NCBI GenBank assembly: GCA_964489835.1
Contig: CAZBBC010000008.1
Span: forward strand, 10,992-74,991
DNA from: an uncultured Calditrichota bacterium
GTDB lineage: Bacteria; Calditrichota; Calditrichia; JAJRVZ01
Direction of reading: 5' to 3'
Length of the DNA: 64,000 nucleotides
The notes below the pieces were generated by a model. The model worked only from the letters and a program-made list of their open reading frames with translations, searched no databases and was not told the origin of the DNA. A program made the translations under genes and the position numbers. Below are positions 14,108 through 64,000 of this stretch, in pieces (the stretch's first letter is position 1; each line of letters starts with the position of its first letter).

Positions 14108-16069
14108 ATGGAAAAAAAGGCGTTCAAACCATTTGTACCTGCAGATTCAGACATGAAAGAATTCTCATTAAAAGCGATTATACTGGGAATCATTATGGCT
14201 ATTGTCCTTGGTGCCGCGAATGCTTACCTGGGGATGAAAGCTGGTTTAACGGTTGCGGCCACTTTTCCGGCAGCCGTTGTCGCCATGGCTGCATTAAGAA
14301 TTCTGAAGGGTACCGTACTGGAAGAAAATTTGGCAAGAACCACCGCGTCAGTTGGCGAGGCATTGATCGCCGGTGCTATCTTTACAATTCCCGCCTTTGT
14401 TATCAGTGGCGTTTGGAGTGAATTGCATTACTGGGAAAGCACAGCCATCATGCTCATTGGTGGTGTTCTGGGCGTGCTCTTTGTTATTATTCTGCGACGA
14501 TCTTTGGTGGAGGAGGCTGATCTTCCTTTCCCTGAAAGTGTTGCCGCGGCAGAAATCGTAAAAGCCGGTCAGGGAGGGCAAACAGGTGCGGTATACGTTT
14601 TCTCAGCCATGGGTCTGGCCGCCGTTTGGGAATTATTTAAAAATTCAAATGGCGTACATATGGTAATGGATTATGCACGCGATTTTTTTCCTATGGCATC
14701 ATCGAAAATAAATATGTTAGGTAAAGAAATAAACTACACGGGTGGCTTTATCTTTGAAACGCCGGCCGCTTCTCCCGCACTGGTGGGAGTTGGGTTTATT
14801 GTCGGAATGCGCGTTTCTGCAGTACTGTTTGCCGGCGCAGTTTCCGGTTGGTTGTTCCTGGTCCCGGCTTTTCTTTTTTTAAATCCGGATCTGGGCAGTT
14901 TGCTGGCCGCAGGAAACAGTTGGGTGGACATCAGTTTAGAAGTCTGGATGCGCCAGGTCCGGCCATTAGCTGTCGGAACAATGATCGTTGCCGCTTTCTA
15001 TACCCTTTATAATCTTCGCACATCGCTGATAACCGGGATAAAAAAAGCTATCGGTGATATTGCCGCGTCAAAATCGGAATCCAGCGGAACGGTATCCCGT
15101 CTGGAGCTGGATATTGATTTTAAGAAAGTATTGCTTGCCATTGGGATTACCGCTATACCACTATTTATTCTCTATCATTATTTTAGTGATTCTATCGGCG
15201 GATCTTTGATTTTGACCATCGTGATGATAGTCATAGGATTTTTATTCGCTGCAGTTGCCGGCTATCTTGTGGGATTGGTTGGAAGTTCAAATAATCCAAT
15301 CAGCGGTTTGACCCTGTCATCACTACTGATTGCCGCTCTGCTGATGGTCGGTATCGGTGTTACCGGGAATCAGGGCATTATGGCTGTTCTTGGAGTCGCC
15401 GGCGTCGTTTGCTGCGCTGCTGGTATCGCCGGTGATATGATGCAGGATTTAAAAGTTGGACATATTTTAGGCGGCACGCCCTGGCGTATGCAGGTTGGTG
15501 AAATTATCGGTGTGGTTGCTGCCGCTCTCGTACTCATTTGGGCTATGATCGTACTGGATCAGGTCTATCATATTGGTAGCGAGAATCTACCGGCCCCTCA
15601 GGCGGGATTAATGGCGCTTATGGCGAAAGGGATTGTCGGTGGTGAAATGGCCTGGCCGCTGGTTATCGCTGGCATGTTCCTCGCTTTTGGCCTTATTCTG
15701 GTTAAAGCACCTTCACCGATGCTTGTAGCAGTGGGAATGTATTTACCGTTTCACTCCACCGCCGCAATATTTGTCGGCGGTATTATTAAATGGATGCTGG
15801 AAACAATATTGAAGAAAGAAAATGCTTCGGATGCACAGAAAACAAAAGCAGAAAACACCGGTGTTTTACTCTCTTCCGGTCTGATTGCCGGTGAATCATT
15901 GACGGCAGTTATCCTGGCCTTTGTTGTTGCCGGTGTTAGTTTGAGTGAAGGCACCTTTAAGTTAACTGATTACGCCTTATTTTCACCCACCGCTTATCTG
16001 GGTATTCTGGCATTTATAGCTCTATTCTATCTACTAATCAAGATACCACTCAACAAATCCAGGGAATAA
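14108..16069 (+). CDS. OPT-family oligopeptide transporter.
   Basis: 653 aa with about 16 TM segments. AAGGAG RBS. N-terminal region FSLKAIILGIIMAIVLGAANAYLGMKAGLTVAATFPAAV is typical of the OPT superfamily. Confidence 0.75.
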   Translation: MEKKAFKPFVPADSDMKEFSLKAIILGIIMAIVLGAANAYLGMKAGLTVAATFPAAVVAMAALRILKGTVLEENLARTTASVGEALIAGAIFTIPAFVISGVWSELHYWESTAIMLIGGVLGVLFVIILRRSLVEEADLPFPESVAAAEIVKAGQGGQTGAVYVFSAMGLAAVWELFKNSNGVHMVMDYARDFFPMASSKINMLGKEINYTGGFIFETPAASPALVGVGFIVGMRVSAVLFAGAVSGWLFLVPAFLFLNPDLGSLLAAGNSWVDISLEVWMRQVRPLAVGTMIVAAFYTLYNLRTSLITGIKKAIGDIAASKSESSGTVSRLELDIDFKKVLLAIGITAIPLFILYHYFSDSIGGSLILTIVMIVIGFLFAAVAGYLVGLVGSSNNPISGLTLSSLLIAALLMVGIGVTGNQGIMAVLGVAGVVCCAAGIAGDMMQDLKVGHILGGTPWRMQVGEIIGVVAAALVLIWAMIVLDQVYHIGSENLPAPQAGLMALMAKGIVGGEMAWPLVIAGMFLAFGLILVKAPSPMLVAVGMYLPFHSTAAIFVGGIIKWMLETILKKENASDAQKTKAENTGVLLSSGLIAGESLTAVILAFVVAGVSLSEGTFKLTDYALFSPTAYLGILAFIALFYLLIKIPLNKSRE

Positions 16070-17152: not shown

Positions 17153-17280
17153 ATGATTTCCCTAATACAATCCGCTACGGGAGGATATTGCATAGAAGTG
17201 ATATTATCCTGAAATGTCATTCCTGTCCCTTCCTGTATTGTAAAAAATAACCACCACGCCAATAGGCGGGCAGGCAGAGT

Positions 17281-17470
17281 GCACGAAGGACACGAAGTTT
17301 TTAAATATTATCATAATTTTTGTGCTAACCCCGCTTTAGATTAAAGAATTATCAATAAAAGATCTTCGTGAACTTCGTTTGCTCTGTGGTGAAAGATTTT
17401 TATATGTTCTATTTTGATCGGCCATAGGCCGTCGCTCACCCGAAGGGCAAGCCTAGGGCCTCTGTGGTTG
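17281..17470. repeat. MITE-like element with CACGAAG-type terminal inverted repeats.
   Basis: gcacgaaggacacgaagtt ... gatcttcgtgaacttcgtttgctctgtggt ... cctctgtggttg. The termini match those of the elements at 50621-51010 and 63831-64000. Adjacent gtcattcctgtcccttcctgt (17215) recurs at 18541. Confidence 0.6.
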
Positions 17471-18454: not shown

Positions 18455-18760
18455 TTTTTACTCTTCTATGTTATTTATTTACAATCCTCTAACCCCCTTT
18501 TCTGGGGCTGTTGTAAAACTAGCGAAAAAGACCAAAACTGTCATGCCTGTCCCTTCCTGTCATTCCTGCGAAGGCAGCAATCCAGAAGGGATAAACTCCA
18601 GCAGTGATCCATGTTAACAAACCACCTAAGTGTCTGTTTTTTATGGATTCCTCCCGCTCCATGAGCGGGACGGGAATGAAAGTTCGTTACGCATATTAAC
18701 AAACAAGGTCTGATTTTAAGGGGAGACTTAATGGTCGCCATATGCTATATTTAAAATTCA
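18455..18760. repeat. Composite of intergenic repeat modules (families C and E).
   Basis: ctcttctatgttatttatttacaatcctctaacccccttttct is near-identical to 41516-41560. tgtcatgcctgtcccttcctgtcattcctgcgaagg matches 17215. ttttaaggggagacttaatggtcgccatatgctatatttaaaattcatga matches 61681-61735 and, inverted, 27245-27300. Hairpin tcccgctccatgagcggga. Confidence 0.6.
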
Positions 18761-18916
18761 TGATTTATTTAGACTAACTAATAGTTTTATTATTTACTAA
18801 CTTTTTATAATCATCCATCGTATTAATATTAAAAAACAGGTCAGAAATATACCCAGCATTTTTAAAATCTACAAATTTGACGTTTAATTTTTCAATATGG
18901 TATAAGAGAATTTTCC

Positions 18917-19426: not shown

Positions 19427-21598
19427 TTATTTTTTATTATCCAAATCAGATTTTTCCCTTCGATTGTCTATATCCTTTTGTTCGCTTTCTGTTTTATCGT
19501 CAGGAGATTTTATACTTTTATCATTTTCCGGCTTTATAACTTTATTTATATTTTCTTTTTGTAACGTTGAAGATAGAGAGTCTACAGCCGGTTTTGGTGA
19601 AGACAAAGAATCCGCGGCCGCTGGTAGTGGTATATCTTCTTCGACAGGTGGTTCCTTTATCTTGTTCTTGGCAATCTTGCCAATTTCCGAACTAGGATAT
19701 TCTTTCGCTGCCAGGGTATAAGCATCAACAGCACCCTGAATATCCTGAATTTTCGTTTCATATATCCAGGCAATAACATATCTGGACTTCTGTGCGAGCA
19801 TACTGCCGGAATCCTCATTAGCTATCTGTCTGAAAATATCAATCGCTCCAAGATATTTCTCCTCCGAAATCAATTTTTCGCCTTGCAAAAAAAGATTTTT
19901 GTACGTTAATATTTCATCCTCGTCTTCGGTTGTATCCTCTTTTGGTCCAACTAAATAAGCGGCATATGGCGATTCCGGATAATCCAAGAGAATAATTTGT
20001 TTGATCGAATCAGCTTTGTCAAATAATTGCAGACCGTAATTATAAGTATAATAGAGAGAATAATACGCCTTGGGCACCAGAATCGAGTCGTTAGATGATT
20101 TGATGAATTTCTGATATGCTACTGCTGCACTGTCGTAATTAACAAGAGTGAGCAGGAAGAATTCAGCCATGGAAAACATGTTTTTCTTAAGAGATTTTTC
20201 TATATCAGCGGCAAATCTAATCACCGGCTTTTTAGCCGGCTTTGCTGTTTCTTTTCCTTTTATTTTTGTTTCATTTACAGCTTTCTCAAATTCAGATCTA
20301 TCAAATTCAACCGCATTAATTTCAGCTGTATCAATTTCAGCCGCATTAATTTCAGCTGCATTAAGTTCAGCTGCATTAATTTCAGCCGCATTAATTTCAG
20401 CTGCATTAATTTCAGCCGCATTAAGTTCAGCTGTATCAATTTCAGCGTATTCCAGCCCCAATGAATCAAAAGCGAGACTATCGGTATTAATTTTTTCCAA
20501 ATCGGCTAAATCACGTTCAATATTCGTCCTGATCTTCCGATACTTGTCTAAAATGCCCGCTCTTTTATCCGCCTCTTCTTTGAATTCTGTATCTCTGTAT
20601 TCCTTTCCGACCTTTTGATATAATTTTTTTGCAGAATCAATATTCACATAATAAAATTCCATTAACTTTGCCATCCCGTAAGCAGCAATAGCAGATCCTT
20701 CTGTTCGGGGATAGGTTTCCATTACTTCATTATAAACATCGGTCGCCTCGGGAATCTGATCTTTGATGACATAGATATCTCCAATCCGTGCATTGATCAG
20801 GGCTTTTTTATCTAAAAATTTACCTATTTGGGCAATTTCTTCGAGAATTGTTATTGCCCGGTCCTGTTCATCCAGTTCAATCAGGCAATCCACCTTTCTC
20901 ATGTTCGCGTCATAAAGTATTTCAACCGATGTATCAAATTCATTGACACCATCATATCTGGTCAGAGCCTCCGAATAATTCTGTTCATTATAATAGGTTT
21001 CTGCAATAAGGAATTGTGCTTTGGCTTCCAATTCCTCATTACTGGAATTCTCAATGATCTTATCAAATTGAACACGTGCATTTTTGTAGTCTTCATTTTT
21101 ATAATATATTCGTCCCAAATTATGATAGGCCTCAGCAGTCAAATCATCATCATCATCAGAAGAAATCACTCTGTTCAGGTATTCCAGCGCTTCATCATCC
21201 CGATCCATTTCTATCAATGCCATCGCTAACAATAAGTAAGCTTCAGTGATCCACTCACTATTTTTATATTTTGCATTAAACTGTAATAAATATCTTTCTG
21301 CTTTCGGGTACTCTTTAACCTGATAATAGCTCTTTCCAATCAGGAGCAACGCTTCATCCGCATAGCTACTACTATCACTGTAGATATTTATCAGCTTCCA
21401 GCATTTATCAATGGTTTTGTAAAAATCGTTGCGTATATCCGATGTGATTTCGCCATCCCGACTACTTTTTATTTTTTTAACACCTTCCTCATACTTTTCC
21501 TGGGCATTGAAAAGCGTATTATAGTAGGCACATCCAACGATCATCACCAAAGGCATTAAAAATAAATAAATTGTTTTTCGCATTCTCATCATGATCAA
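19427..21598 (-). CDS. TPR-repeat lipoprotein with an internal (N/D)(A/T)AE(I/L) pentapeptide tandem-repeat tract and a Lys/Asp/Pro-rich low-complexity C-terminus.
   Basis: Lipobox MIVGC. Multiple TPR-like helices (AEAYHNLGRIYYKNEDYKNA etc.). Central tract AEIDTAELNAAEINAAEINAAEINAAELNAAEINAAEIDTAEINAVEF. C-terminal PKPAVDSLSS...KSDLDNKK. Confidence 0.7.
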   Translation of the reverse strand: MIMMRMRKTIYLFLMPLVMIVGCAYYNTLFNAQEKYEEGVKKIKSSRDGEITSDIRNDFYKTIDKCWKLINIYSDSSSYADEALLLIGKSYYQVKEYPKAERYLLQFNAKYKNSEWITEAYLLLAMALIEMDRDDEALEYLNRVISSDDDDDLTAEAYHNLGRIYYKNEDYKNARVQFDKIIENSSNEELEAKAQFLIAETYYNEQNYSEALTRYDGVNEFDTSVEILYDANMRKVDCLIELDEQDRAITILEEIAQIGKFLDKKALINARIGDIYVIKDQIPEATDVYNEVMETYPRTEGSAIAAYGMAKLMEFYYVNIDSAKKLYQKVGKEYRDTEFKEEADKRAGILDKYRKIRTNIERDLADLEKINTDSLAFDSLGLEYAEIDTAELNAAEINAAEINAAEINAAELNAAEINAAEIDTAEINAVEFDRSEFEKAVNETKIKGKETAKPAKKPVIRFAADIEKSLKKNMFSMAEFFLLTLVNYDSAAVAYQKFIKSSNDSILVPKAYYSLYYTYNYGLQLFDKADSIKQIILLDYPESPYAAYLVGPKEDTTEDEDEILTYKNLFLQGEKLISEEKYLGAIDIFRQIANEDSGSMLAQKSRYVIAWIYETKIQDIQGAVDAYTLAAKEYPSSEIGKIAKNKIKEPPVEEDIPLPAAADSLSSPKPAVDSLSSTLQKENINKVIKPENDKSIKSPDDKTESEQKDIDNRREKSDLDNKK
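20296..20458. repeat. About 10-11 copies of a 15-bp tandem repeat (consensus TTCAGCYGCATTAAK) inside the TPR-lipoprotein gene.
   Basis: Read directly: ttcagccgcattaatttcagctgcattaagttcagctgcattaatttcagccgcattaatttcagctgcattaatttcagccgcattaag... The repeat is in frame and encodes the AEINA pentapeptide. Confidence 0.9.
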
Positions 21599-23841: not shown

Positions 23842-23880
23842 AAGGAGGAGCCCATGCTGTCCCTCCAAAAGAACTAAAGT

Positions 23881-24000
23881 CCACGAATTACACGAATTAT
23901 ACAAGGATTTCACAAATTTTTGCTATATTATTCATGTCTTTTTTGTTGAATCCAAATAAAACAGTATTAATATATTATTTCTAATTCGTGTAATTCGTGG
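23881..24000. repeat. 120-bp MITE-like element bounded by a perfect 19-bp inverted repeat.
   Basis: ccacgaattacacgaatta ... 82 bp AT-rich ... taattcgtgtaattcgtgg. Same CACGAA/TTCGTG dyad theme as other elements. The track ORF 23778..23984 spans it and is likely spurious. Confidence 0.8.
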
Positions 24001-24730: not shown

Positions 24731-25098
24731 CCTGTCTCCTATTTAAATTAATATTTTTACGTTTTAATTCCTGAATACTACACCGGGCATGGCACGCCGT
24801 GCCCCTCGTTGAGGGAAATCCCAAATCACAAGCACCAAATCCCAAATAATTCCCAATAACCAATCCCCCGATAAGAGATGTCGTCCTCAGACGACTTACC
24901 GGACCTAAATCATGCATGATATAGCAAATTCCTATTCTGAAATCCTGGATGATTTCATCCCGATCATGCCAGTAGGTGGATTCGCCCGCTGTGAATTTGT
25001 TGCCCGGAGGGAATCGTTATCATCGGGGCTAGTTCCCAGTTCCGAGTTCCAAGTTCCAAATATTTGTTTTTTTACTTCCCACTTCCTACTTTAACTGA

Positions 25099-25174
25099 GG
25101 TACCCCAGGAGAGATTCGAACTCCCGACACATGGCTTAGGAAGCCACTGCTCTATCCTGCTGAGCTACTGGGGC
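25099..25174 (-). tRNA. tRNA-Arg (anticodon CCT).
   Basis: Reverse complement reads GCCCCAGTAGCTCAGCAGGATAGAGCAGTGGCTTCCTAAGCCATGTGTCGGGAGTTCGAATCTCTCCTGGGGTACC. 7-bp acceptor stem, D-arm GCTC/GAGC, anticodon loop TTCCTAA, T-arm GGGAG-TTCGAAT-CTCTC. CC of the CCA is encoded. Confidence 0.8.
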
Positions 25175-25283: not shown

Positions 25284-25613
25284 AAAGTCAGGGATGAGCT
25301 ACCGGGGCAAAAATTAACAATTATTAATTTATTAAAAATAAACTCTTAAGGCAAGGAATGAGAAGGGCTAATATCATATGAAGGAAAGAAATAAAACGGA
25401 GACCGGAGGCCGGATACCGGTAACCGGAAAACTTTCAATGCTATGCCCGGTTCAGGCGGATTCGCACGCCAATTGGCGCATTTTCAACCTACTGGCGAAT
25501 TTCATTTGTCATTGTGGCTTGGGAATTGTGATTTTATTATATCCTGCCCGGCTATTAATAGTTTGCTCGAAACAAAGATGGGTATTTTGTTATGTTATGG
25601 CAGATAATAAGAA

Positions 25614-27020: not shown

Positions 27021-27239
27021 AATATTTTATCTTTATAATAAATTTTTACTATTCCTGATTTTCGATGGTTCAATTACAATGTGAATCTTATAAGATAAAC
27101 AGCAATTTAACTTTTATTCAAATTTAAATAAATAGAAGTACCGTAAAAAATTACAGGGATTTCCTATTCCAGGTAATAGACGCGATAAAAAGAAAAGTGC
27201 TATTAATTATTTTACTAAAGTCATTGAATTAATAAATCA

Positions 27240-27400
27240 GTTAACCTGGTTAATTCATGAATTTTAAATTCATCAAGTAGCGACAGTAAAATCTCCCCTT
27301 AAAAAAGGGATTAAGGGATTGTAAAATTTCGATTATCCTATAACCTTTTTTGATAGACAACCCCCCGCCCCCTTTTCTAAGGGGGAGTTAAATAATTGAT
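27240..27400. repeat. Intergenic repeat modules of family C (inverted orientation) with a poly-C/poly-G hairpin.
   Basis: ttaattcatgaattttaaattcatcaagtagcgacagtaaaatctccccttaaaa is the reverse complement of the 18700-18740 / 61681-61735 module. ccccccgcccccttttctaagggggag matches 41540-41570. Confidence 0.6.
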
Positions 27401-32757: not shown

Positions 32758-33124
32758 TTTTTTACTCCAATAAATTATACTATGTAATTCTAATTATTTT
32801 AAACTTAAAGTCTTATCTCTTTTTTTCTGTATTATTACCACAAAAAACTTGATTATTTAAGCACCCTTTCGATGTCATTCAGTCCGCCGGGAGACGGATC
32901 CGCTTACTGGCCTGAAAGGAATCTTTCAAATTGTTGGCTAAATCCAACAAGAAAAAAGATCCTTACAGGATGACAAAATTAATTATTTTTTGTCTGCAGT
33001 TTTATGCTATTATAGCCAAAAACTTCGTTATTTTTTAAAAAATTTTTTTATTTTAGCAAAATTTTTGCTACTTGGATTATTCATTTCTCGCAGCGGCGCA
33101 GAGACACGACTATTTATAAATAAT

Positions 33125-33240
33125 TATTTTAGTTTTAATCCGTGTTAATTCGTGTCAGTCTTCGCCTGATCCGGCGTAGACGGATAATCCGTGGACAAAT
33201 TCTTTTTTTGATTGCAGCCAACGGCTGCGGTATGAATAAT
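33125..33240. repeat. Family A miniature intergenic repeat element (forward orientation).
   Basis: ttttaatccgtgttaattcgtgtcagtcttcgcctgatccggcgtagacggataatccgtggacaaattctttttttgattgcagccaacggctgcggtatgaata is near-identical to 61762-61868, and inverted to 54508-54615. Confidence 0.85.
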
Positions 33241-33245
33241 TAAGT

Positions 33246-33779
33246 TTAATTATAACAAATCAATGATAATATATCGTATTCGTTTATCAACTCCCGGCCT
33301 TTCAGAAAGCCCAATTCGATCAGGAATAAAATCGCTTCAACTTTCGCCCCTGATCTTTCGATCAAATGACAGGATGCCCGGGCAGTACCGCCGGTTGCCA
33401 GCAGATCATCAACGAGAAGCACTCTTGCACCGTGTTCGATGGCATCGGCGTGGATCTCGACGCTGTCCGTCCCATACTCCAGTGAATATTCTTCACGGAG
33501 AATTTTAGCCGGGAGTTTACCGGGTTTTCTGACAGGAACAAAACTTTTATTCAATTTATAAGCCAAAGCAGATCCAAAAATAAATCCTCTTGATTCAATT
33601 GCCGCGACGATATCAAACGATCTGTTTTTTATCAAATCATGTAACTGATCGATTGATTGAGCGAACAGATCAGCATCCTTTAAAAGCGTTGTGATATCTT
33701 TAAAGATGATACCCTTCTTGGGAAAATCCGGCACATCACGGATGGATGCTTTTAGTCTTACTATTTTATCTTCGTTCAT
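33246..33779 (-). CDS. apt: Adenine phosphoribosyltransferase.
   Basis: PDFPKKGIIFKDIT and PRPP-binding VLLVDDLLATGGTARA. Confidence 0.9.
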   Translation of the reverse strand: MNEDKIVRLKASIRDVPDFPKKGIIFKDITTLLKDADLFAQSIDQLHDLIKNRSFDIVAAIESRGFIFGSALAYKLNKSFVPVRKPGKLPAKILREEYSLEYGTDSVEIHADAIEHGARVLLVDDLLATGGTARASCHLIERSGAKVEAILFLIELGFLKGRELINEYDILSLICYN

Positions 33780-33791
33780 ATTTTGTGTTTT

Positions 33792-34067
33792 TTAATACTC
33801 GACAGAAAATTTTTGATATTTAGCTGTATATGGTTCAAAAGTGAAATCAATATTATCAACCAAAGAAAAACCCGGACCCTGTTCCAATATTGTCTTATAG
33901 TGTTCTATCACTTCTTTTTCGCCTTCAATACGCACTTCAACACTTCCGTCCGCAAGATTTTTAACATATCCCTTCAAACCATAGTCATTGGCGTGGCGCA
34001 TGGCGAAATAGCGAAAACCAACACCCTGAACTCTCCCCACAACCCGGATATGCGCACCTGTCATCAT
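33792..34067 (-). CDS. acyP: Acylphosphatase.
   Basis: VVGRVQGVGFRYF and GYVKNLADGSVEV, the acylphosphatase signatures. 91 aa. Confidence 0.85.
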   Translation of the reverse strand: MMTGAHIRVVGRVQGVGFRYFAMRHANDYGLKGYVKNLADGSVEVRIEGEKEVIEHYKTILEQGPGFSLVDNIDFTFEPYTAKYQKFSVEY

Positions 34068-34528
34068 CGCTTTTGCAGAAATCCGGATATTTTTGTCACT
34101 GCCTCCTGTGGCGTTGACACAGAAAATATTCTATCAGAAACATCCCAGGTATTCAATCCCACGACCGGTTTCTGCAATTGCAGCGCAAATGCTAATTCGG
34201 ATAGTGTACCAAAACCACCATTTACGGCAATTACGCCGGCGGCGGAGCGAATAATGATCAGATTTCTGCTAATCCCCAGACCGGTTGGTATCACGGTATC
34301 CACATAAGGATTGGCATCCTGCGGATCGTCACCGGGCAGAATACCAATCGTTCGACCACCATAATTTTTTGCTCCTTTGCAGGTCGCTTCCATGACACCG
34401 CCCAGGCCACCACAAATCACTATAAAACCGTTTTTTGCCAGCAGGGTCCCCAATTCTTCGCATAGCCGGTACATCTCTTTATCACAGTCTCTGGCGCCAA
34501 TAACGGCAATTGTTTTACTATAGCTCAA
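34064..34528 (-). CDS. LOG-family / TIGR00725 Rossmann-fold nucleotide-binding protein.
   Basis: ICGGLGGVMEA ... NGGFGTLSE matches the LOG (PGGxGTxxE) pattern. 154 aa. Confidence 0.7.
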   Translation of the reverse strand: MSYSKTIAVIGARDCDKEMYRLCEELGTLLAKNGFIVICGGLGGVMEATCKGAKNYGGRTIGILPGDDPQDANPYVDTVIPTGLGISRNLIIIRSAAGVIAVNGGFGTLSELAFALQLQKPVVGLNTWDVSDRIFSVSTPQEAVTKISGFLQKR

Positions 34529-34534
34529 TTTTAT

Positions 34535-34612
34535 ACTTCGTTTCTTTGTTCACGTGCTTCGTGGATTATTTTTTTTGTTTGCAGCATCGCTGCTGTATGA
34601 ATAGAACAGGTT
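34535..34612. repeat. Partial family A repeat (hairpin GCAGCATCGCTGC module plus CGTG dyad).
   Basis: ttcacgtgcttcgtggattattttttttgtttgcagcatcgctgctgtatgaataga matches the right end of the 61801-61870 and 33181-33240 copies. Confidence 0.7.
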
Positions 34613-35928: not shown

Positions 35929-36267
35929 AACCCTATGTTATAATATTTATCCGGAAACCTTGCAATTTATATATAACTCTATAATCATTCAACCTTATAT
36001 CAGAAAAAGTAAGCGGTAAAATATAAGTGACTAGAGTTAAAAGTGAACAAAAGTGACTAAAGTGTGTCATTCACCTCTCGCGGAGACGCTGAGACGCAAG
36101 GATTTGAATTTAAAGGATTTATGTCAGAACACCTTAACTATTTATTATATTGCTTTCCCGACATGTCGGGACTCGCAATGACGCTTCCATGATTGTCATT
36201 TCGAGGAGTGAAGAATAAACGACCATGAAATCTTTTGTATTTTTTCTTTTGTATTTTGTATTATTTC

Positions 36268-38165: not shown

Positions 38166-38336
38166 AGATTACACGGGGTAATTTATTAATTTTAATTATG
38201 TTAATACTGTTTCTCATTAGCTCAGGAAATTATTTGCCCAATAATATGTTTGAAAGGAAATTCTTTAAGAATTCTCAGAGTAATTCTCTGAGGTCTCTGT
38301 GGTTTTCTAATCCAGTTTTACATATAACTACGAACG

Positions 38337-41454: not shown

Positions 41455-41700
41455 TTTATCAGAATTGCATGATCTGTCTCCCCCTTGATAAAGGGGGACT
41501 AAGGGGGATATATACTCTTCTATGTTATTTATTTACAACCTCCTAACCCCCTTTTCTAAGGGGGAATAGATTTTACTTAATCGATGTTTCAAATGAACTT
41601 TTTCTAAAAAATAACCTAAACTCCAATAGCCCAATAAATGGGATTAGTCCCCCTTTTCAAAGGAGGAGACAGAGCTTTCATACATCAAAAGCTGCACGAA
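41455..41700. repeat. Family C repeat cluster (poly-C/poly-G hairpin modules).
   Basis: tctcccccttgataaagggggactaagggggat (matches 61585-61620), ctcttctatgttatttatttacaacctcctaacccccttttctaagggggaat (matches 18461-18510), and gattagtcccccttttcaaaggaggagaca. Confidence 0.7.
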
Positions 41701-47277: not shown

Positions 47278-47439
47278 GATACCTCCATAATCAGATGATA
47301 TATCGGTGGGATTATTAGAATATAATTGGGAATTTAGGCAAGGATAAGCAAGGAAGCAATAAGAATATGATCCAATTGCCCCGACTTTTAGATATTGTGG
47401 GAGAAATATTATTTACCACGGAAATACACGGAAAATACA

Positions 47440-47545
47440 TAATAGAGAATAACTTATTTGTATAAATTTATCTATTGTTAAATAATTTTTTAATAATTCT
47501 GTTTCAGTCCGTGCAAATCCGTGGTTGATTTTTAATTTTTATACA
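47440..47545. repeat. CGTG-dyad repeat modules.
   Basis: ccacggaaatacacggaaaatac (47415-47437) and cagtccgtgcaaatccgtggttg (47506-47528, as in 61770 ttaatccgtgcaaatcagtg). Confidence 0.5.
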
Positions 47546-48593: not shown

Positions 48594-49244
48594 TTATTTT
48601 AATAGTAGAGCCAGATTGACCACATCATCGGCCTGGGTGGGAAGTTGCGTTTGTTCACCTTCATCGGTTTCTAAATAGGTATTTAACTGATGGGTCCAGT
48701 TAACCAGGAGACCAAATTCAGGTAATCCGACAAAATCCAACTGCCTCTGGATGGAGACTTCTATACCATTGACAAAACCTGTGCCCAAATTTTGCATCTG
48801 TGTTACCTGATCCACCTTGAAACCATTAAATTCCCTGTCAGCTGGGGCAAAAGAAATTTCCTGTTGTACATTCGAAAGCGTCTTATTGAAATAGCCGACA
48901 GACATATGGGCGGCCAGACTGGGCGCATAATGTTCCAGGATGATGTCAAAATTTGTGGCTCGTGTTGGATCCAAATCAGAATTACCGGTCATAGTCAGTC
49001 AGATTATAAAATGAATAATAAGCCTTTAGGTTGAATTTGTAACCTAAAGATGGTTTGTATAAGATGGCGTATTGACGCCACCTTTAAATTCTTCGGTTTC
49101 AGTTGGTGCATCACGATAGTATCGACGACCTACATCGATCGGATTTCCATTGATATCGACATAGGACTCTTCTAGTTCATCATCTTCCCAATTCCAGTCA
49201 TTTCGCTTATCTCTTTCCGAGAATGACGATAACAACACCGTCAT
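48594..49244 (-). pseudogene. Fragments of a TonB-dependent-receptor-like beta-barrel (two short ORFs, probably a decayed gene).
   Basis: 48594..48992 translates to alternating beta-strand sequence (GFKVDQVTQMQNLGTGFVNGIEVSIQRQL...GLLVNWTH) without plug or N-terminus. 49044..49244 is a second short fragment. No signal peptide. Confidence 0.35.
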
Positions 49245-49411
49245 TGCGAATAACGAAAAATGAGTAGCCTGCTCGCCTACCCTGTAAAACGGGGTCTACG
49301 ACGCGGCGGGACGAAACAATCTCTTGTAGTTATTGGTGTTATGTCAATTTTTACGGATTAAATGTTAGGGGTACTCCAGTTAATATATTAAGTACCCATT
49401 TCAAACAAAAT

Positions 49412-50620: not shown

Positions 50621-51010
50621 TTTATAAACCACAGAGGACACGAAGGAAGCAAATAACAATATTTAAACCATTCAATCATTTTAATAATCATTTTCTGATT
50701 ATGTCCTTAACTCCACAAAAATCCTATAGATTGCTTTCCGCCTCAGCGGATCAGCCGAGGCTGACGCTAACGTTCGCAATGACGATAATGAGTTGGTCAG
50801 TGCGAATCTCGAATAGTGAATATTTGGCCTGTCATCTGGGAAGGACCTTCTTATGTGATCGTATCATACCGACACTTTAAAAGATCCCTACGGGATGACA
50901 GGAATGCTTTCACATGTGGCGTTTCACGTCTGACGTTTGACGTCTCACTATAAATTTAATTATTCAATATTCTTTCTTTTCTTCGTGAACTTCGTGCACT
51001 TCGTGGTTGC
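50621..51010. repeat. About 390-bp composite MITE-like element with terminal inverted repeats.
   Basis: Left end tttataaaccacagaggacacgaaggaagc. Right end cttcgtgaacttcgtgcacttcgtggttgc (inverted). The interior carries family E modules (gtcatctgggaagg ... gggatgacaggaatg) and gtttcacgtctgacgtttgacgtctcac. Confidence 0.65.
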
Positions 51011-51895
51011 TTATCGCTTATAATTCTTTTTAATAAATGCTTCGACCTCCTCCATTTTCCTGAGAATGGGTCCTTCGGCCTCCATTTTCAGACTGGTGAC
51101 AGCAGCTGACCAGATAATCGCTTCTTCGGGTGGTGCCGTCAGACGTTTTGCCATATAGGAAGCGATACAGGTGTCACCTCTGCCGCTGCGGCCGACCATT
51201 TCTGCTGGTAAAAATGGCGCTTCAAAATATCGCCCCCCGGCAAAGACAAGAAGCCCATCACGGTGTGTGAGAACAATTTCCTTTGGACCCCACCCCTCTA
51301 AAATCTGTGCCGCTTTGCGAATATCTTTCTCCCCTGTCAGAAATGCTGCTTCCACCGCATCTGCTTTAAAAACATCAATTAATCCCAGCACCTGTTTCTT
51401 CTCAGGCCAGGGTGCATGAATCAGTCGATTGTCCCAATTAATGATTCTGACAAATCCCTGTGCATCGGCGACAAGATAACCGCTTTTAATACGCAGGAAT
51501 TCAACGACTTTTAAAGGGACTTCGTCACGGATCGAGGCATTGATCAGGAAAGCTTTTGCCTGAATTTTTTCAAACTGATCTACGGTATAGGAACCAGCAG
51601 TAACAGGGCATGTGAGAATACGCTCGTCCACATTTTCCGTAGGATATTCGAGTCGCATATGTGTCGAAGATGGTGTTACCACAGGATATACATCAACACC
51701 GATGGCTATAAGTTTATCTACCACATGTTTGTCGTCCTGTGCCAGCCGGGTGACGGCTGCCACTTTAAGACCTGATATGACCGCGGCATGGGCGCCATAA
51801 TTAAATCCGCCGCCATCGACATACCTTGTTCCTGCTGCCGATACGATTGTATCCTTCGTATAATTACCCAGTATTACTATATCGTACACACTCAT
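51011..51895 (-). CDS. PfkB-family carbohydrate kinase.
   Basis: Ribokinase-like fold: N-terminal IVILGNYTKDTIV and C-terminal ATP-site GRSGRGDTCIASYMA (the DTxGAGD-type motif). Confidence 0.8.
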   Translation of the reverse strand: MSVYDIVILGNYTKDTIVSAAGTRYVDGGGFNYGAHAAVISGLKVAAVTRLAQDDKHVVDKLIAIGVDVYPVVTPSSTHMRLEYPTENVDERILTCPVTAGSYTVDQFEKIQAKAFLINASIRDEVPLKVVEFLRIKSGYLVADAQGFVRIINWDNRLIHAPWPEKKQVLGLIDVFKADAVEAAFLTGEKDIRKAAQILEGWGPKEIVLTHRDGLLVFAGGRYFEAPFLPAEMVGRSGRGDTCIASYMAKRLTAPPEEAIIWSAAVTSLKMEAEGPILRKMEEVEAFIKKNYKR

Positions 51896-53294: not shown

Positions 53295-53375
53295 AGATCC
53301 ACGGATTATCCGTCGCAGCCGGATCCCGTCATAGCCACGTCTGCGCCGCGCCTGCCGCGTCGTAGACCCTTTTTG
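53295..53375. repeat. Partial family A repeat plus GC-rich word.
   Basis: gatccacggattatccgtcgcagccggatcc, and cgtctgcgccgcgcctgccgcgtcgtagaccc (matches 22751 and inverted 49290-49315). Confidence 0.65.
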
Positions 53376-54452: not shown

Positions 54453-54507
54453 TTATTCCTCCAGAATTAAACTTTTAAAATATCTATATGCATAATTAGC
54501 CTAACCT

Positions 54508-54700
54508 ATTCATACCGCAGCATATTGCTGCAATCAAAGAAAAAAATAGTCCACGGATTATCCGTCTACGCCGGATCAGGCGAAGACTGACACGAATTAG
54601 CACGGATTAAAACTAAAATAATATTAATTTTTATTTAAAATCTGTGTCAATCCGTGAAATCTGTGGATAAAAAACGCTGCGCCGCTTTGAGAGACGAATT
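54508..54700. repeat. Family A repeat element (inverted orientation) plus adjacent CGTG-dyad module.
   Basis: 54508-54615 is the reverse complement of 33131-33236 (cataccgcagcatattgctgcaatcaaag...gtccacggattatccgtctacgccggatcaggcgaagactgacacgaattagcacggattaaaac), followed by tctgtgtcaatccgtgaaatctgtggat. Confidence 0.85.
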
Positions 54701-54719
54701 GACCGAATTTGTAAATTAT

Positions 54720-57572
54720 TCACCTCTCCTGCTGATACGATTGATTCAATAGTACAATCGGATGGATGGTATCAATCCCGGTTCCCTTGGTGAGCTGTAT
54801 CTGACAGGTACCACACCCCGATACCAGCGTATCCGGTTTTACTTCATTAATTTGTGAAAATAAAGGTTGACCCATCTTCATGGAAATTTCATAGTTTTCT
54901 TTTTTCATGCCATAAGTTCCGGCAATACCACAACAGCTATCTTCTACATCGATAATATTCAGAGCAGGGATTAATTTTAGCAGATCAATGGGCCCATACT
55001 CATTTTGCTGGGATTTCAGGTGACACGGTTCATGGTAAACAATTCTTGAGTTCAGTGGAGCGAATTTTCCGGTAAATTCCCCCTGATGATAAGCTTTCAT
55101 CAAAAAATCATGGATATCAACCGATTCTGCGGCAATGGTCCGGAGATCTTTATCATTCGGAAAATAATTATCGTATTCTTTCATAAAGGCATAACCGCAG
55201 GAGGCGCTTGAAAAGATGACAGGTATCTTCTTTTTTGCTAATGGAAGCAGTATTCTGATATTGTAGTCAATATCAGATCGGGCTCCGCTGATATTTCCAT
55301 AAGAGATTTTAGCAATATTACAACAACGCCAGGAGGGAATAATTACCTTATAACCGAGTTTCTGCAATAGTTGGACAGTTTGCTGATGTTCTCCTTCCGG
55401 ATCACTATACTGGGCGGAACAGCCACTCCATAAGACAACATTCTTGCCATTCCCGGCTTGAAATTTCTCCATTCGTGTTGTCCCGACCGAAAATCTTGAA
55501 AAAAGTGGAAAATCCCGTCGTTTATCAATTCCGGCAATTTTTTCCATTAGGCATCGAATCAATCGAAAGCGTAACACACGGTTACTCAAAGGAGCGGTTA
55601 ATGCGGCAATCTTGCTGACAATTTTCCCATTCTGCAGTAATTTTTCGTTTATTTTAAAGGGTCGTTTTTGATGTAATTTCTCTTTTGCTGCTATCGCCAT
55701 TCCCGGTATATCAACGCTGGTCGGACAATCAGTCAGGCATTGTCCGCAATTCAAACAGTAATCCATAATTGTAAAGAAGTGATCGGTGTCGATAGCGTTT
55801 AGAGCGGTCTTTCCGGATATGATTCCACGTAAAATATTTGCTTTTGCCCGAGCCGTTGCTTCCTCCTCACCGGTTGCAACAAAAACCGGACAATATTCAC
55901 GGCAGGTCCCGCAACCATGACATTTTTCAATTTCTGAACGCCATTTATCCTCATCAAGACGGGAGTCGGTATCAATATATTCATCCGATGGCGAATAACG
56001 CCAATCGGCATTCCATTTTATTGGTTCCCTGGGTACAATAATATCCGGATTCATAATGCGCGAAGGATCAAAAATATCTTTAATTTCCCTAAATAGCGGC
56101 ATTAATTCCGGGAATCGTTTGGGAAGAAAGGGCGAGCGAAGCCGCCCGTCACCGTGCTCTCCGGTTAGGCTGCCGTTATATTGAATAACCAGATCGACAA
56201 ATTCATCCATAAATTTTTCGATCAGCACCATCGTTTTTTCGTCTTTTATATCAATCAAAGGGCGTAAATGAAGGTTTCCATCGCCGGCATGTCCATAGAT
56301 AACATACTTAAAGTCGAATTTTTTCAGCAAAGAACCGGCGTCACGTAAAAAATCAGGAAAAACATCCGGATGAATCGCGGTATCTTCTACAAATGGAATC
56401 GGTTTATTTTTTCCGTTAATTTTGTTCAGAATAATGGTGGCTGCTTTCCGCAGGGTGAAAATTTTTTCAATTTCAGATTCATTGGTCGAATAGGCACCTT
56501 TCTGTCCAAGTTCCCGTTGATTCACAATCTCGTTAATCGCCTTTTGAAAAGAGTCATGAATGGATTCAACCGTTGTCCCTTCAAATTCAACAAAAAGTAA
56601 ATAACGTACACCACTGGGTAAAAATTTACTGAGGTCGGGTTGATATTCGAGGGCAAGCACCATAAACGACTGGTCGACAAACTCTATGGCTGAGGCACCC
56701 AAACGTCGTAAAACCTGAACCGCCTTACCCATATCCTCAAGTTCAGAGAAATAAAGAGAAATGATACCTCTCTCCGGTTTCAGGGGAATGATATTCAATA
56801 GAGCTTCGGTAAAAACTCCCAAAGTACCCTCACTGCCAACAAACAGTGAGGCCATATTCAACCGTTCTGTTGTAAGAATATCCCATACCTGATACCCTGA
56901 GGCACTTTTTGTTACCCGGGGACGACTGTTTTTAATTCTATGGGCATAGTTTTTGAAAAGTTCATGAATTTTTTCATAATAGGGCCGGTGAAAGTCATCC
57001 AACCCGGCAATATCTGTGATCGCTATATTTTTAGCCCGAAACAATTTGCCATTGGCCAAAATAACCGACACCTCATCGACATGTTTGTACATACTACCAT
57101 GAAGAATCGTGTGCGGTCCGCCGCTGTTGTTACCTAACATTCCGCCAATCACACAGATATTGCCGCTACTGGGATCCGGGCCGAACTTACACCCTTTTTC
57201 CTTTATAGCTTTCTGTAACTGGTTTAATACAACCCCAACCCCCACCCTGGCCTGGCTGTCAGAGAGGATATCAATGCATTGAAAATGATGAGTTAAATCC
57301 AGAATTACTGCTCTTCCCACGGCATTACCGGCCAGACTGGATCCGGCACCTCTGGGCAAAACGGGAATATTATAAGTCTGGCAGATATTGACCGCCTGAA
57401 CAATATCATCCACTGTTTCCGGTATCATCACCGCCAATGGTGTGATATCATAGATGCAGGCCGCCGTACTATACAGTTGTAAGGTGACCGGATCCCAGCG
57501 AACTTTAGCGTTCAGATTTTCCCTAAAAGCTCTCTGCCAATCTTCCAGAGGATCTTGTATTTGAATCAACAT
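54720..57572 (-). CDS. Large FAD-binding oxidoreductase fused to a 4Fe-4S ferredoxin and tandem CCG (cysteine-rich) domains (YdiJ / GlcD-GlcF-fusion type).
   Basis: FAD PCMH domain (PRGAGSSLAGNAVG). Fe-S motifs CHGCGTCREYCP and CLNCGQCLTDCP. C-terminal CCG-type cysteine clusters (WSGCSAQY..., HEPCHLK...DSCCGIAGTYG). 950 aa. Confidence 0.8.
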   Translation of the reverse strand: MLIQIQDPLEDWQRAFRENLNAKVRWDPVTLQLYSTAACIYDITPLAVMIPETVDDIVQAVNICQTYNIPVLPRGAGSSLAGNAVGRAVILDLTHHFQCIDILSDSQARVGVGVVLNQLQKAIKEKGCKFGPDPSSGNICVIGGMLGNNSGGPHTILHGSMYKHVDEVSVILANGKLFRAKNIAITDIAGLDDFHRPYYEKIHELFKNYAHRIKNSRPRVTKSASGYQVWDILTTERLNMASLFVGSEGTLGVFTEALLNIIPLKPERGIISLYFSELEDMGKAVQVLRRLGASAIEFVDQSFMVLALEYQPDLSKFLPSGVRYLLFVEFEGTTVESIHDSFQKAINEIVNQRELGQKGAYSTNESEIEKIFTLRKAATIILNKINGKNKPIPFVEDTAIHPDVFPDFLRDAGSLLKKFDFKYVIYGHAGDGNLHLRPLIDIKDEKTMVLIEKFMDEFVDLVIQYNGSLTGEHGDGRLRSPFLPKRFPELMPLFREIKDIFDPSRIMNPDIIVPREPIKWNADWRYSPSDEYIDTDSRLDEDKWRSEIEKCHGCGTCREYCPVFVATGEEEATARAKANILRGIISGKTALNAIDTDHFFTIMDYCLNCGQCLTDCPTSVDIPGMAIAAKEKLHQKRPFKINEKLLQNGKIVSKIAALTAPLSNRVLRFRLIRCLMEKIAGIDKRRDFPLFSRFSVGTTRMEKFQAGNGKNVVLWSGCSAQYSDPEGEHQQTVQLLQKLGYKVIIPSWRCCNIAKISYGNISGARSDIDYNIRILLPLAKKKIPVIFSSASCGYAFMKEYDNYFPNDKDLRTIAAESVDIHDFLMKAYHQGEFTGKFAPLNSRIVYHEPCHLKSQQNEYGPIDLLKLIPALNIIDVEDSCCGIAGTYGMKKENYEISMKMGQPLFSQINEVKPDTLVSGCGTCQIQLTKGTGIDTIHPIVLLNQSYQQER

Positions 57573-58764: not shown

Positions 58765-58890
58765 AGAGACACGGAGACGCAGCGTTTTTTGTCCACGGAT
58801 TATCCGGCTTCGACGAAAAATCTGTTAATCAATTCGTGAAATTCGTGGATATATTTCTCTGCGGCTTTGCGGCTCTGCGAGAGATAGTAT
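58765..58890. repeat. Partial family A repeat (inverted) with CGTG dyad.
   Basis: cacggagacgcagcgttttttgtccacggattatccggcttcgacgaaaaatctgttaatcaattcgtgaaattcgtggat. The first part also resembles 36075 (cggagacgctgagacgc). Confidence 0.7.
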
Positions 58891-61480: not shown

Positions 61481-61870
61481 AGCAAAAATTTTAAAAACTT
61501 TTATCCACGGATTTCACGGATTTTATTTAGCCTGAATTATTCATAAAATTAAATATTTAAGTCTATAAATAACCTAAAATCAATGAGTTAATTCCCCCTT
61601 AATAAAGGGGGTTAGGGGGATGTTTTAAACGTAATATTTTAAATTATATCAATGTTTTACAACCCCTTAGTCCCCTTTTTTTTAAGGGAAGACTTAATTG
61701 TCGCTATATGATAGATCTAAAATTCATGAATTAATCAGGTTAGAAATAATATTTATTTTAATTTTAATCCGTGCAAATCAGTGTCAGCCAATCACTTGAT
61801 CCGGCTTCGACGGATAATCCGTGGACAAAATCTTTTTTTTATCGCAGCATCGCTGCGTTATGTATTTATC
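61481..61870. repeat. Mosaic of all three repeat families in one spacer.
   Basis: ttatccacggatttcacggatt (CGTG dyad). aattcccccttaataaagggggttagggggat (family C). ttttaagggaagacttaattgtcgctatatgatagatctaaaattcatgaatta (family C module). 61762-61868 is a full family A copy (ttttaatccgtgcaaatcagtgtcagcc...cgacggataatccgtggacaaaatcttttttttatcgcagcatcgctgcgttatg). Confidence 0.85.
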
Positions 61871-63830: not shown

Positions 63831-64000
63831 TATAAACCACGAAGCACACTAAGGACACGAAGTTAAAAAACAATTAAGAATTTAGAATTATAAATTTGAA
63901 CAAGAAGTAATAGGCGCTAACGTTATGTCATTAATATCTTCACATTCTTAATTCGTAATTTTTAATTCTTAATTTCGAGAAGACCTTCGTGTGCTTCGTG
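63831..64000. repeat. MITE-like element with CACGAAG terminal inverted repeats (may continue past window end).
   Basis: tataaaccacgaagcacactaaggacacgaagtt ... AT-rich interior ... gaagaccttcgtgtgcttcgtg. Left end is near-identical to 50621-50650. Confidence 0.75.

Follow-up and report, generated by a model that had tools for sequence, protein, structure and literature searches.

Several intergenic spacers in a 64-kb stretch of DNA from an uncultured Calditrichota bacterium (contig CAZBBC010000008.1; in the following called the window and numbered from its first letter) are occupied by small elements without an open reading frame (ORF), whose ends are inverted repeats built from the motif CACGAAG. 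This raises the question of what these elements are and by which means they came to lie between ordinary housekeeping genes, nearly all of which are encoded on the minus strand (G+C content of the window about 0.40). A first-pass annotation had taken four of them for MITEs (miniature inverted-repeat transposable elements), derived from an insertion sequence (IS) with short terminal inverted repeats (TIRs). The comparisons described below suggest that they are probably non-autonomous miniatures, devoid of an ORF and of target-site duplications (TSDs), of a very widespread family of cassettes which carry a gene for a GxxExxY protein between ends of the same kind.

The copy first described as being about 390 bp long is a 382-bp composite element without ORF (50627-51008), situated between the stop codon of a gene for a PfkB-family kinase (51011-51013, minus strand) and the start codon of a Metallophos gene (50587, minus strand). 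Seen on the minus strand, the element begins 2 nt past the stop codon of the kinase gene and ends 40 nt short of the start codon of the metallophosphoesterase gene; the best named relatives of the kinase occur in Fidelibacterota/Marinimicrobia. The sequence of the left end is AACCACAGAGGACACGAAGG, that of the right end CTTCGTGAACTTCGTGCACTTCGTGGTT. The arm at 50981-51008 (minus strand) consists of three perfect CACGAAG units with a 9-bp period (minus-strand reading AACCACGAAGTGCACGAAGTTCACGAAG), and the opposite arm at 50627-50649 (plus strand, AACCACAGAGGACACGAAGGAAG) of one CACAGAG and one CACGAAG unit. The predicted RNA fold of the element closes on these arms (z = -5.3).

In a related locus with a protein identity of 77% (L003; loci outside the window are cited by L numbers), the order of nine genes is kept, the PfkB gene shares 11 bp with the Metallophos gene, and no element is present there. 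Because the flanking genes overlap at this place in L003, the 382-bp copy is an insertion. A closer relative (L001/L002, 96% identity) possesses the element at the same position with the same two ends and a swapped interior, as approximately 180 bp of the window interior are replaced in L001 by a G+C-rich hairpin of about 40 nt. Relatives at this level of identity are contained in the samples ERZ25073475 and ERZ25073477. With regard to an invertible promoter (inverton), the part of the interior common to the window and L001 runs in one direction in both, and no recombinase was found among the 27 window ORFs scanned against Pfam. The block at 50650-50835, which has no counterpart in L001 save for a short segment in common next to 50835, contains a module (50778-50822, repeat family D2) resembling 49222-49266 and 36177-36221. 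It is followed by an internal hairpin module (CCTGTCATC...GATGACAGG, 50836-50909) of another repeat family, conserved in L001 and with relatives at 32870-32985 and in L003 (15320-15395), and by an internal period-7 repeat (ACGTCTG ACGTTTG ACGTCTC, 50918-50941), which is strongly diverged in L001. With internal modules common to other spacers, and the same ends around a different block in the 96% relative, the composite nature that the first-pass annotation had ascribed to this copy was borne out. L003 holds armed elements at other spacers, with arms of the types CGCAGAG/CGCAAAG, CACGGAA, CACAAAG and CACGAAT. These other arm variants (here called flavours), together with the swapped interior in L001, indicate that the content of the spacers turns over fast in this lineage.

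The hairpin module at 50836-50909, 32870-32985 and L003 15320-15395 represents a third hairpin family; it has the form TGTCATCC..GTAGGGATC ... GATCCCTAC..GGATGACA, and its conservation extends from the window over L001 to the more distant L003.

All four copies were found at or near the positions originally proposed. At these sites inverted arms of two or three CACGAAG or CACGAAT heptamers (arm length 16-28 nt) enclose AT-rich interiors, and the arms converge and are of one flavour, with 50627-51008 mixing CACAGAG and CACGAAG on one side. The motif CACGAAG occurs 16 times in the window in comparison to 4.2 expected occurrences, a number reached in none of 100 shuffles, and the 7-2-7 heptamer pattern with at most three mismatches gave 16 matches against 2.95 expected. 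Each terminus is not a short simple TIR but an array of tandem 7-bp units with a strict 9-bp period and the outer ends CCAC.../...GTGG. This layout, the lack of any mutual sequence similarity between the four interiors and about eight further intergenic regions with related arms (CACGGAT, CACGGAA, CACGAAT, CACAGAG) had been overlooked.

The other three copies are located at 17273-17391, 23880-24000 and 63834-64000. The element at 17273-17391 has no ORF and carries two CACGAAG units and a degenerate third unit per side (arms GCAGAGTGCACGAAGGACACGAAG and CTTCGTGAACTTCGTTTGCTCTGTGG) around a 66-bp AT-rich interior (fold z = -2.9). The span initially given for it (17281-17470) also covers 17420-17469, where a G+C-rich hairpin precedes one CCTCTGTGGTT end unit, a layout which also occurs in L001 at 2125-2175. 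In the ORF-less element of the CACGAAT flavour at 23880-24000, the 83-bp interior is bounded by the perfect 19-bp inverted repeat noted earlier (starts 23880 and 23982, CCACGAATTACACGAATTA / TAATTCGTGTAATTCGTGG; fold z = -7.0). The copy at 63834-64000, upstream of a creatininase gene, is cut by the window edge, as had been stated for a start at 63831; its left arm consists of CACGAAG, CACTAAG and CACGAAG. In every window copy that was folded, the arms form the closing stem of the predicted structure (z = -2.9 to -7.0).

The arms are by no means restricted to this lineage, and a derivation from a lineage-specific IS does not fit their distribution over many bacterial phyla and viral contigs. 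A scan for the triple heptamer CACGAAGNNCACGAAGNNCACGAAG on both strands of one genome per species (596 Gb), for which about 0.3 chance matches were calculated, gave at least 120 matches in genome contigs; the scan of IMG/VR viral contigs for this motif likewise gave at least 120. Among the matches listed were Acidobacteriota, Verrucomicrobiota, Planctomycetota, Desulfobacterota, Chloroflexota, Binatia, Nitrospirota and Alpha-, Beta- and Gammaproteobacteria, including the isolates Herpetosiphon spp. (incl. Herpetosiphon aurantiacus DSM 785; CP000875), Methylobacter luteus, Thioalkalivibrio denitrificans, Phenylobacterium terrae and Dokdonella ginsengisoli; in the majority of the matches listed, two arms form a convergent inverted pair around a loop of between 5 and about 420 nt. 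The consensus of 70 pairs is TTMAC-CACGAAG-RR-CACGAAG-RR-CACGAAG with the outer end ...ACCAC / GTGGT..., and the flanks are T-rich on the 5' side and A-rich on the 3' side, on either strand. In one phage (L223/L184), paired elements are found between consecutive genes immediately past the stop codons, and in phage L206 a single arm lies just upstream of a start codon.

Within single genomes similar units occur in multiple copies, for example three similar 74-bp miniatures within 8 kb of L057, and similar miniatures were also detected in L039, L054 and L083. The miniatures far outnumber the gene-bearing copies: among 135 non-redundant arm pairs from outside the window, only two are known to enclose a GxxExxY gene, and a search of these pairs for GxxExxY found no more. 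All-against-all clustering of the neighbouring ORFs revealed no specific gene family recurring near the arms. At gathering score, Rfam 15 matched only a tRNA in the window and nine arm-bearing loci, and a distant BLAST search of a consensus 85-nt element against annotated plasmids and cultured phages gave no match, to which the low-complexity filter may have contributed. With a strict generic detector for inverted arms of period 9, three loci were obtained in comparison to 0.13 in simulations; it was not used for counts because it misses degenerate arms. No description of CACGAAG arms was found in the searchable literature by sequence strings and keywords. In a metagenome-assembled genome of the Vicinamibacterales (L055, 6470-7800), at least eight armed elements form a tandem array with a period of about 155 bp and a single orientation.

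The gene-bearing form was recognised in two genome loci (L119 and L040), in which the arms tightly enclose an ORF of 123 amino acids encoding a GxxExxY protein of the PD-(D/E)XK nuclease superfamily (PF13366, PDDEXK_3, E = 5e-40; TIGR04256, E = 3e-41). In both loci the start codon directly abuts the last heptamer (CACGAAGG-ATG), and the opposite arm opens 3 nt past the stop codon. A full-length cassette comprises about 430 bp, consisting of the left arm, 0-3 nt, the start codon and the 123-aa GxxExxY gene, the stop codon, 2-6 nt and the inverted arm. The first-pass annotation had suggested looking for a longer element with these TIRs and a transposase gene. An element of greater length that shares the termini and contains a gene for an enzyme does exist, in other lineages and not in the window; it encodes GxxExxY and not a DDE or TnpB/IS200-605 transposase.

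To this, 80 GxxExxY genes were added from metagenome contigs, which had been retrieved by their peptide pattern alone. In a strict automated test, which required matched inverted heptamers of 9-nt periodicity on either side at a distance of up to about 100 nt, 56 of 77 GxxExxY genes passed, and by eye about 85-90% possess such arms; the failures mostly showed arms of another period or more distant arms. The arm flavours of the cassettes were CACGAAG (45), CATGAAG (12), CACAGAG (8) and, in a few cases, CACTGAG or CACCGAG, and the clusters of the GxxExxY proteins follow the flavour. The CACAGAG flavour, which is present in the arm at 50627-50649, also surrounds GxxExxY genes in L270, L275 and L286. 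The proteins are 76-87% identical across distant phyla, many of them on short contigs. Intact examples occur in isolates as well. Lacimicrobium alkaliphilum (CP013650) contains a cassette of the usual layout, directly followed by a truncated copy (L326, 3420-3470) in which the left arm and the start codon continue in a stretch taken from the 3' part of the ORF, i.e. an example of an internal deletion. Dysgonomonas sp. 25 possesses a cassette with CACTGAG arms and a CTCTGTGGTT unit resembling the units of the window.

The TIGR04256/PF13366 family is large, with more than 7,900 cluster representatives at E <= 1e-10 among 8,000 candidates examined. In PMC3424549, PF13366 is listed without a known function and with multiple transfers from one division to another, and the searchable literature mentions GxxExxY without assigning a function. 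The protein had no match in PHROGs and no sequence relative in the PDB. In PADLOC it showed a weak similarity to Cas4 (E = 2e-4), which is consistent with a PD-(D/E)XK core.

The arms of the window and those of the cassettes belong to one family. A nhmmer profile built from 58 arms of 35 GxxExxY cassettes matched the window at 63834-63863 (E = 5.8e-5) and 51008-50980 (E = 7.1e-5), and with lower significance at 17282-17297 (E = 0.008), 64000-63983 (E = 0.036) and 17378-17363 (E = 0.054). As the window itself contains no GxxExxY gene, its copies represent the ORF-less form.

Since a transposase of the DDE type would be expected to leave short direct repeats, the flanks of the 135 arm pairs were compared with those of shuffled partners for direct repeats of 2-5 nt at offsets of 0-7. 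Their frequency was about that of the shuffled partners at nearly every offset and length, with few exceedances and no consistent pattern. Likewise, the flanking duplications of 2-9 bp that the first-pass annotation had proposed as a check are missing at the window copies. The inverted complementarity of the flanks lay above the shuffled level in the 135 pairs, even 5-7 nt outside the conserved arm. In a phage pair (L214 filled, L141 empty), about 390 nt are present between a stop codon and a ribosome-binding site without any duplication. No transposase ORF (DDE or TnpB/IS200-605) was found between the arms in 240 arm-bearing loci; among arm pairs 0.5-2 kb apart in these loci, recurring pairs of 1,627 bp in viral contigs enclose two phage tail genes.

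Within the arms, the heptamers are conserved as sequence, and the 2-nt spacers are not constrained to pair. The spacers are purine-rich, and their identity between the arms is 0.365 per nucleotide in comparison to 0.332 +/- 0.032 in shuffles, with only the outermost spacer being enriched. On the known sense strand of the cassettes, the mismatches between the arms comprise 62 G-U and 72 A-C, and the spacer positions pair approximately at random. A conserved heptamer sequence next to spacers that are free to mispair speaks for a sequence-specific recognition and not for RNA pairing alone. The flanks, T-rich on the 5' and A-rich on the 3' side, do not show the arrangement of an intrinsic terminator, i.e. 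a G+C-rich hairpin with a U-tract.

In their way of life the window elements most resemble MITEs or repetitive extragenic palindromic (REP) doublets (REPINs), i.e. small palindromic passengers depending on an enzyme gene with the same ends, yet they fail the defining tests of both families. Classical MITEs such as Correia elements and Nezha are deletion derivatives of an IS with short TIRs, moved by a transposase of the DDE or TnpB/IS200-605 type which leaves TSDs. Like them, the window elements are small, without coding capacity, bounded by inverted termini and dispersed in spacers, are predicted to form hairpins in transcripts, outnumber the gene-bearing form and nest into composites, and the 382-bp copy is inserted relative to L003; this part of the first-pass reading stands. 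However, neither TSDs nor, between the arms of 240 loci, a DDE or TnpB partner were found, single arms are common, the interiors are unrelated, and the termini are arrays of two to three 7-mers with a 9-bp period that recur in many phyla. The first-pass annotation had itself named missing TSDs together with a missing transposase as reasons to abandon its reading, and by this rule the claim of classical MITEs fails. This explanation is close to refuted and must be considered extremely improbable, while the notion that the elements are non-autonomous and descend from one with a gene can be retained in a modified version. REPINs and bacterial interspersed mosaic elements (BIMEs) are palindromic doublets, the former spread on single-stranded hairpins by a domesticated single-copy HUH tyrosine transposase (REP-associated tyrosine transposase, RAYT), and are thought to need a trans-acting enzyme gene flanked by the repeats. 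The lack of TSDs, the symmetric inverted doublets, the mosaics in spacers and the large excess of copies over the gene-bearing form would all suit them. In contrast, the units described here are tandem 7-mers with a CCAC head and not self-palindromic REPs of 20-40 nt with a GTAG/CGTC head, REPs are usually species-specific whereas the CACGAAG motif is common to many phyla, the gene within the arms is a PD-(D/E)XK and not a Y1 HUH gene, and no neighbouring gene family recurs near the arms. A Y1 HUH (RAYT) gene did not turn up in the Pfam scans of ORFs between the arms or in the clustering of neighbouring ORFs. With neither a REP-type unit nor a Y1 gene seen, the elements do not fit REPINs, and there is hardly any probability left for this origin.

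The remaining alternatives do without mobility of a cassette. The arms could be cis-acting RNA or expression signals, in which a purine-rich leader arm resembling a Shine-Dalgarno sequence pairs with a downstream arm, and the closing stem regulates translation, shields the mRNA or serves as a target of RNase III; in that case the copies without ORF would be cassettes whose gene was lost in place, or hairpins that the host keeps as intercistronic insulators. The start codon 0-3 nt past the last heptamer, a GAAGGA at Shine-Dalgarno distance, the position of the paired phage elements in L223 and L184 right at stop codons, the folds of the window copies, all of which close on the arms, and the deletion derivative adjoining the intact Lacimicrobium cassette agree with such a role. 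But an identical 7-mer in different phyla is not accounted for by a structural role, the spacers pair at random and the mismatches show no preference for G-U on the sense strand, the flanks are the reverse of those of an intrinsic terminator, and no Rfam family matched. Moreover, decay in place fails to account for the insertion into an overlapping gene pair or for similar miniatures in multiple copies. As the principal explanation this seems unlikely, although it is compatible with the cassette interpretation as a secondary role. Binding arrays of a host DNA- or RNA-binding protein (a regulator, nucleoid protein or RNA chaperone), recruited independently in many spacers as proposed for the TAACTGA repeats, would explain the conserved units with free spacers as well as the single arms just upstream of start codons (window 34536-34564; phage L206), and the cross-phylum TAACTGA heptamers provide a precedent (PMC4679880). 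Against them speak the lack of a conserved neighbouring regulator, hosts in too many phyla, plus viral contigs, for any but a universal host factor, and the tight reciprocal link to one small gene family combined with strict inverted pairing, which favours an element over a regulon; such arrays are therefore very unlikely. DnaA boxes, parS half-sites, sigma-54 promoters, Mu-end half-sites and attC sites were rejected as look-alikes since their spacing, copy number or layout is unfit.

If the window elements are miniatures of the GxxExxY cassette, as we consider probable, the heptamer arrays would be recognised by a protein specific for their sequence. The most likely candidate is the GxxExxY nuclease, which would act in trans and mobilise both the gene-bearing and the ORF-less forms. 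The spread might take place on a break-and-repair or homing-type route and not by staggered-cut transposition, which would explain the missing TSDs and the palindromic flanks. Some ORF-less copies may have arisen by internal deletion and then persisted or amplified. In the transcript of an operon the arms could pair as a long closing stem, probably as a side effect or as a means of silencing read-through translation. It is possible, though on balance doubtful, that GxxExxY proteins are the nucleases of an unrecognised class of TSD-less mobile cassettes, in which the protein recognises arrays of 7-mers with a 9-bp spacing at both ends and cassettes and the far more numerous miniatures are copied into spacers by homing-like break-and-repair, with the arms of about 27 bp perhaps as minimal homology, and which would have spread through most bacterial phyla and phages, shaping intergenic DNA as REPIN/RAYT does in proteobacteria.

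Several observations weigh against the derivation of the window elements from the cassette. The 80 GxxExxY loci represent the nearest relatives of two queries with arms, and it is for this subfamily that the association with arms was measured. The common clustering of arm flavours and protein clades is expected from physical linkage alone. Both the nuclease activity and the binding of the arms by GxxExxY are putative, and the AlphaFold2 models of the protein (pLDDT 47 and 61) were too poor to use, a Foldseek comparison with the PDB being uninformative. Neither the 64-kb window nor the loci of its relatives contain a GxxExxY gene (best hmmsearch E = 1.4). A tblastn match to the GxxExxY core PVEYKGVRLDCGYRVDL at 61651-61731, inside a CACGGAT-armed element, was not significant (E = 0.05-0.25). 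The GxxExxY-like stretch of this region is shared by the repeat copies 18714-18791 and 27227-27304, and a Pfam scan for PF13366 gave no match for the 61651-61731 peptide or the translated 27227-27304 copy, so that a GxxExxY remnant in the window is an unconfirmed hint. A clean filled/empty pair at high identity was not found, as joined-flank BLAST among all loci gave a single diverged phage pair. Since the inserted DNA reaches beyond the arms both in window/L003 and in L214/L141, which are both diverged pairs, the mobile unit could not be delimited. The mutual similarity of a recently amplified MITE family is missing among the interiors of the window copies. Finally, CACGAAG arms in viral contigs tightly bracket other small ORFs, namely DUF6527, a 99-aa ORF and a 74-aa ORF without family (L169 2757-3162, L130 765-1135, L177 36-334), which suggests that the arms are able to carry different cargo; they could accordingly be generic cassette or expression signals and not the nuclease's own sites.

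Systems with comparable properties are known. Homing endonuclease genes, free-standing or intron-borne, including those of the PD-(D/E)XK type such as I-Ssp6803I, are small nuclease genes forming compact selfish units which also occur in phages. The GxxExxY cassette with its predicted nuclease resembles them as a compact unit between genes, without TSD and in distant hosts; homing endonucleases are not known to possess inverted arms of tandem heptamers or to leave abundant gene-less copies. The intervening sequences of 23S rRNA genes are patchily distributed and are removed by RNase III; their small ORF is enclosed by inverted flanks, which form a long stem in the transcript. They share with the cassette the small ORF between pairing flanks and differ from it by their location inside rRNA genes. 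The short tandemly repeated repetitive sequences (STRR) of cyanobacteria consist of short heptamer repeats and are grouped with the TAACTGA type. The TAACTGA repeats, the nearest precedent for a heptamer occurring across phyla, are contiguous 7-nt direct repeats without a link to a gene (PMC4679880). Both have in common with the CACGAAG arms that 7-nt units occur in the spacers of distant phyla, often near start codons; unlike the arms, they have a 7-nt period, form direct and not inverted pairs and are not associated with any particular gene.

The connection of GxxExxY with a defined DNA architecture and with abundant gene-less copies provides a testable role for a large protein family, and annotators gain a means to recognise a class of intergenic repeats recurring in many phyla. 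Armed repeats break assemblies, split operons and put long hairpins into transcripts. In the window, the cassette family would explain why the spacers differ so much from those of the syntenic relative, which are short or filled with other repeat modules. If the nuclease proves to be programmed in its sequence preference by short tandem units, it might be of interest as a tool.

The further armed regions of the window comprise complete elements, clusters and single arms. A sister element of the CACGGAA flavour is located at 47415-47533 (fold z = -5.5), with a similar element in L003 at 15435-15560. The composite element with CACGGAT arms at 61503-61826 is the one whose interior contains the weak, unconfirmed GxxExxY core match at 61651-61731. 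The repeat and motif scans also revealed a cluster of CACGGAT, CACGAAT and CACAGAT arms at 54550-54666. A CACGGAT/CACGAAT arm cluster at 33136-33197 is part of a 131-nt repeat (33123-33253), whose inverted copy lies 21 kb away at 54492-54622 (89% complementary); in both copies, CACGAAT/CACGGAT arms occur together with a TCCACGGATTATCCGTC mini-palindrome as well as a GCAGC hairpin. The CACGGAT flavour is also present at 53298-53325. Single arms were found at 58828-58849 on the minus strand (CACGAAT, CAATTCGTGAAATTCGTGGAT), at 34536-34564 on the minus strand (degenerate CACGAAG, just upstream of the gene 34064-34528) and at 38274-38304.

A second intergenic repeat family consists of CCCCCTT(n)AAGGGGG hairpins and is present in the window at 27360-27400, 41476-41567 and 61591-61693 and in L003 at 1470-1500. 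These hairpins are often joined with an 80-nt unit (18714-18791, 27227-27304, 61680-61757), which is the one with the weak and unconfirmed match to the GxxExxY core.

Two differences in gene content from L003 were noticed beside the spacers. At 48594-48992 (minus strand) the window has a 132-aa fragment of a TonB-dependent receptor, where L003 possesses an intact 908-aa receptor and a second phosphoesterase gene; from these intact genes, a deletion in the lineage of the window beside its repeat-rich spacers can be deduced. Furthermore, a gene for a 950-aa protein with FAD-oxidase, 4Fe-4S and CCG domains (54720-57572, minus strand) is missing from the otherwise collinear block of L003. The spacer on one side of this gene (54453-54719) is full of armed elements, and the 105-bp spacer on the other side contains none.

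The only tRNA gene of the window, tRNA-Arg(CCT) at 25099-25174 (minus strand), is flanked by low-complexity blocks with a period of 8 nt at 25031-25060 and 25398-25428, which consist of four copies each of GTTCCNAG and CCGGANNN and are not complementary to each other. Finally, the gene for a 723-aa TPR protein (19427-21598, minus strand) contains ten copies of a 15-nt tandem repeat at 20260-20469, corresponding to a period of five residues.

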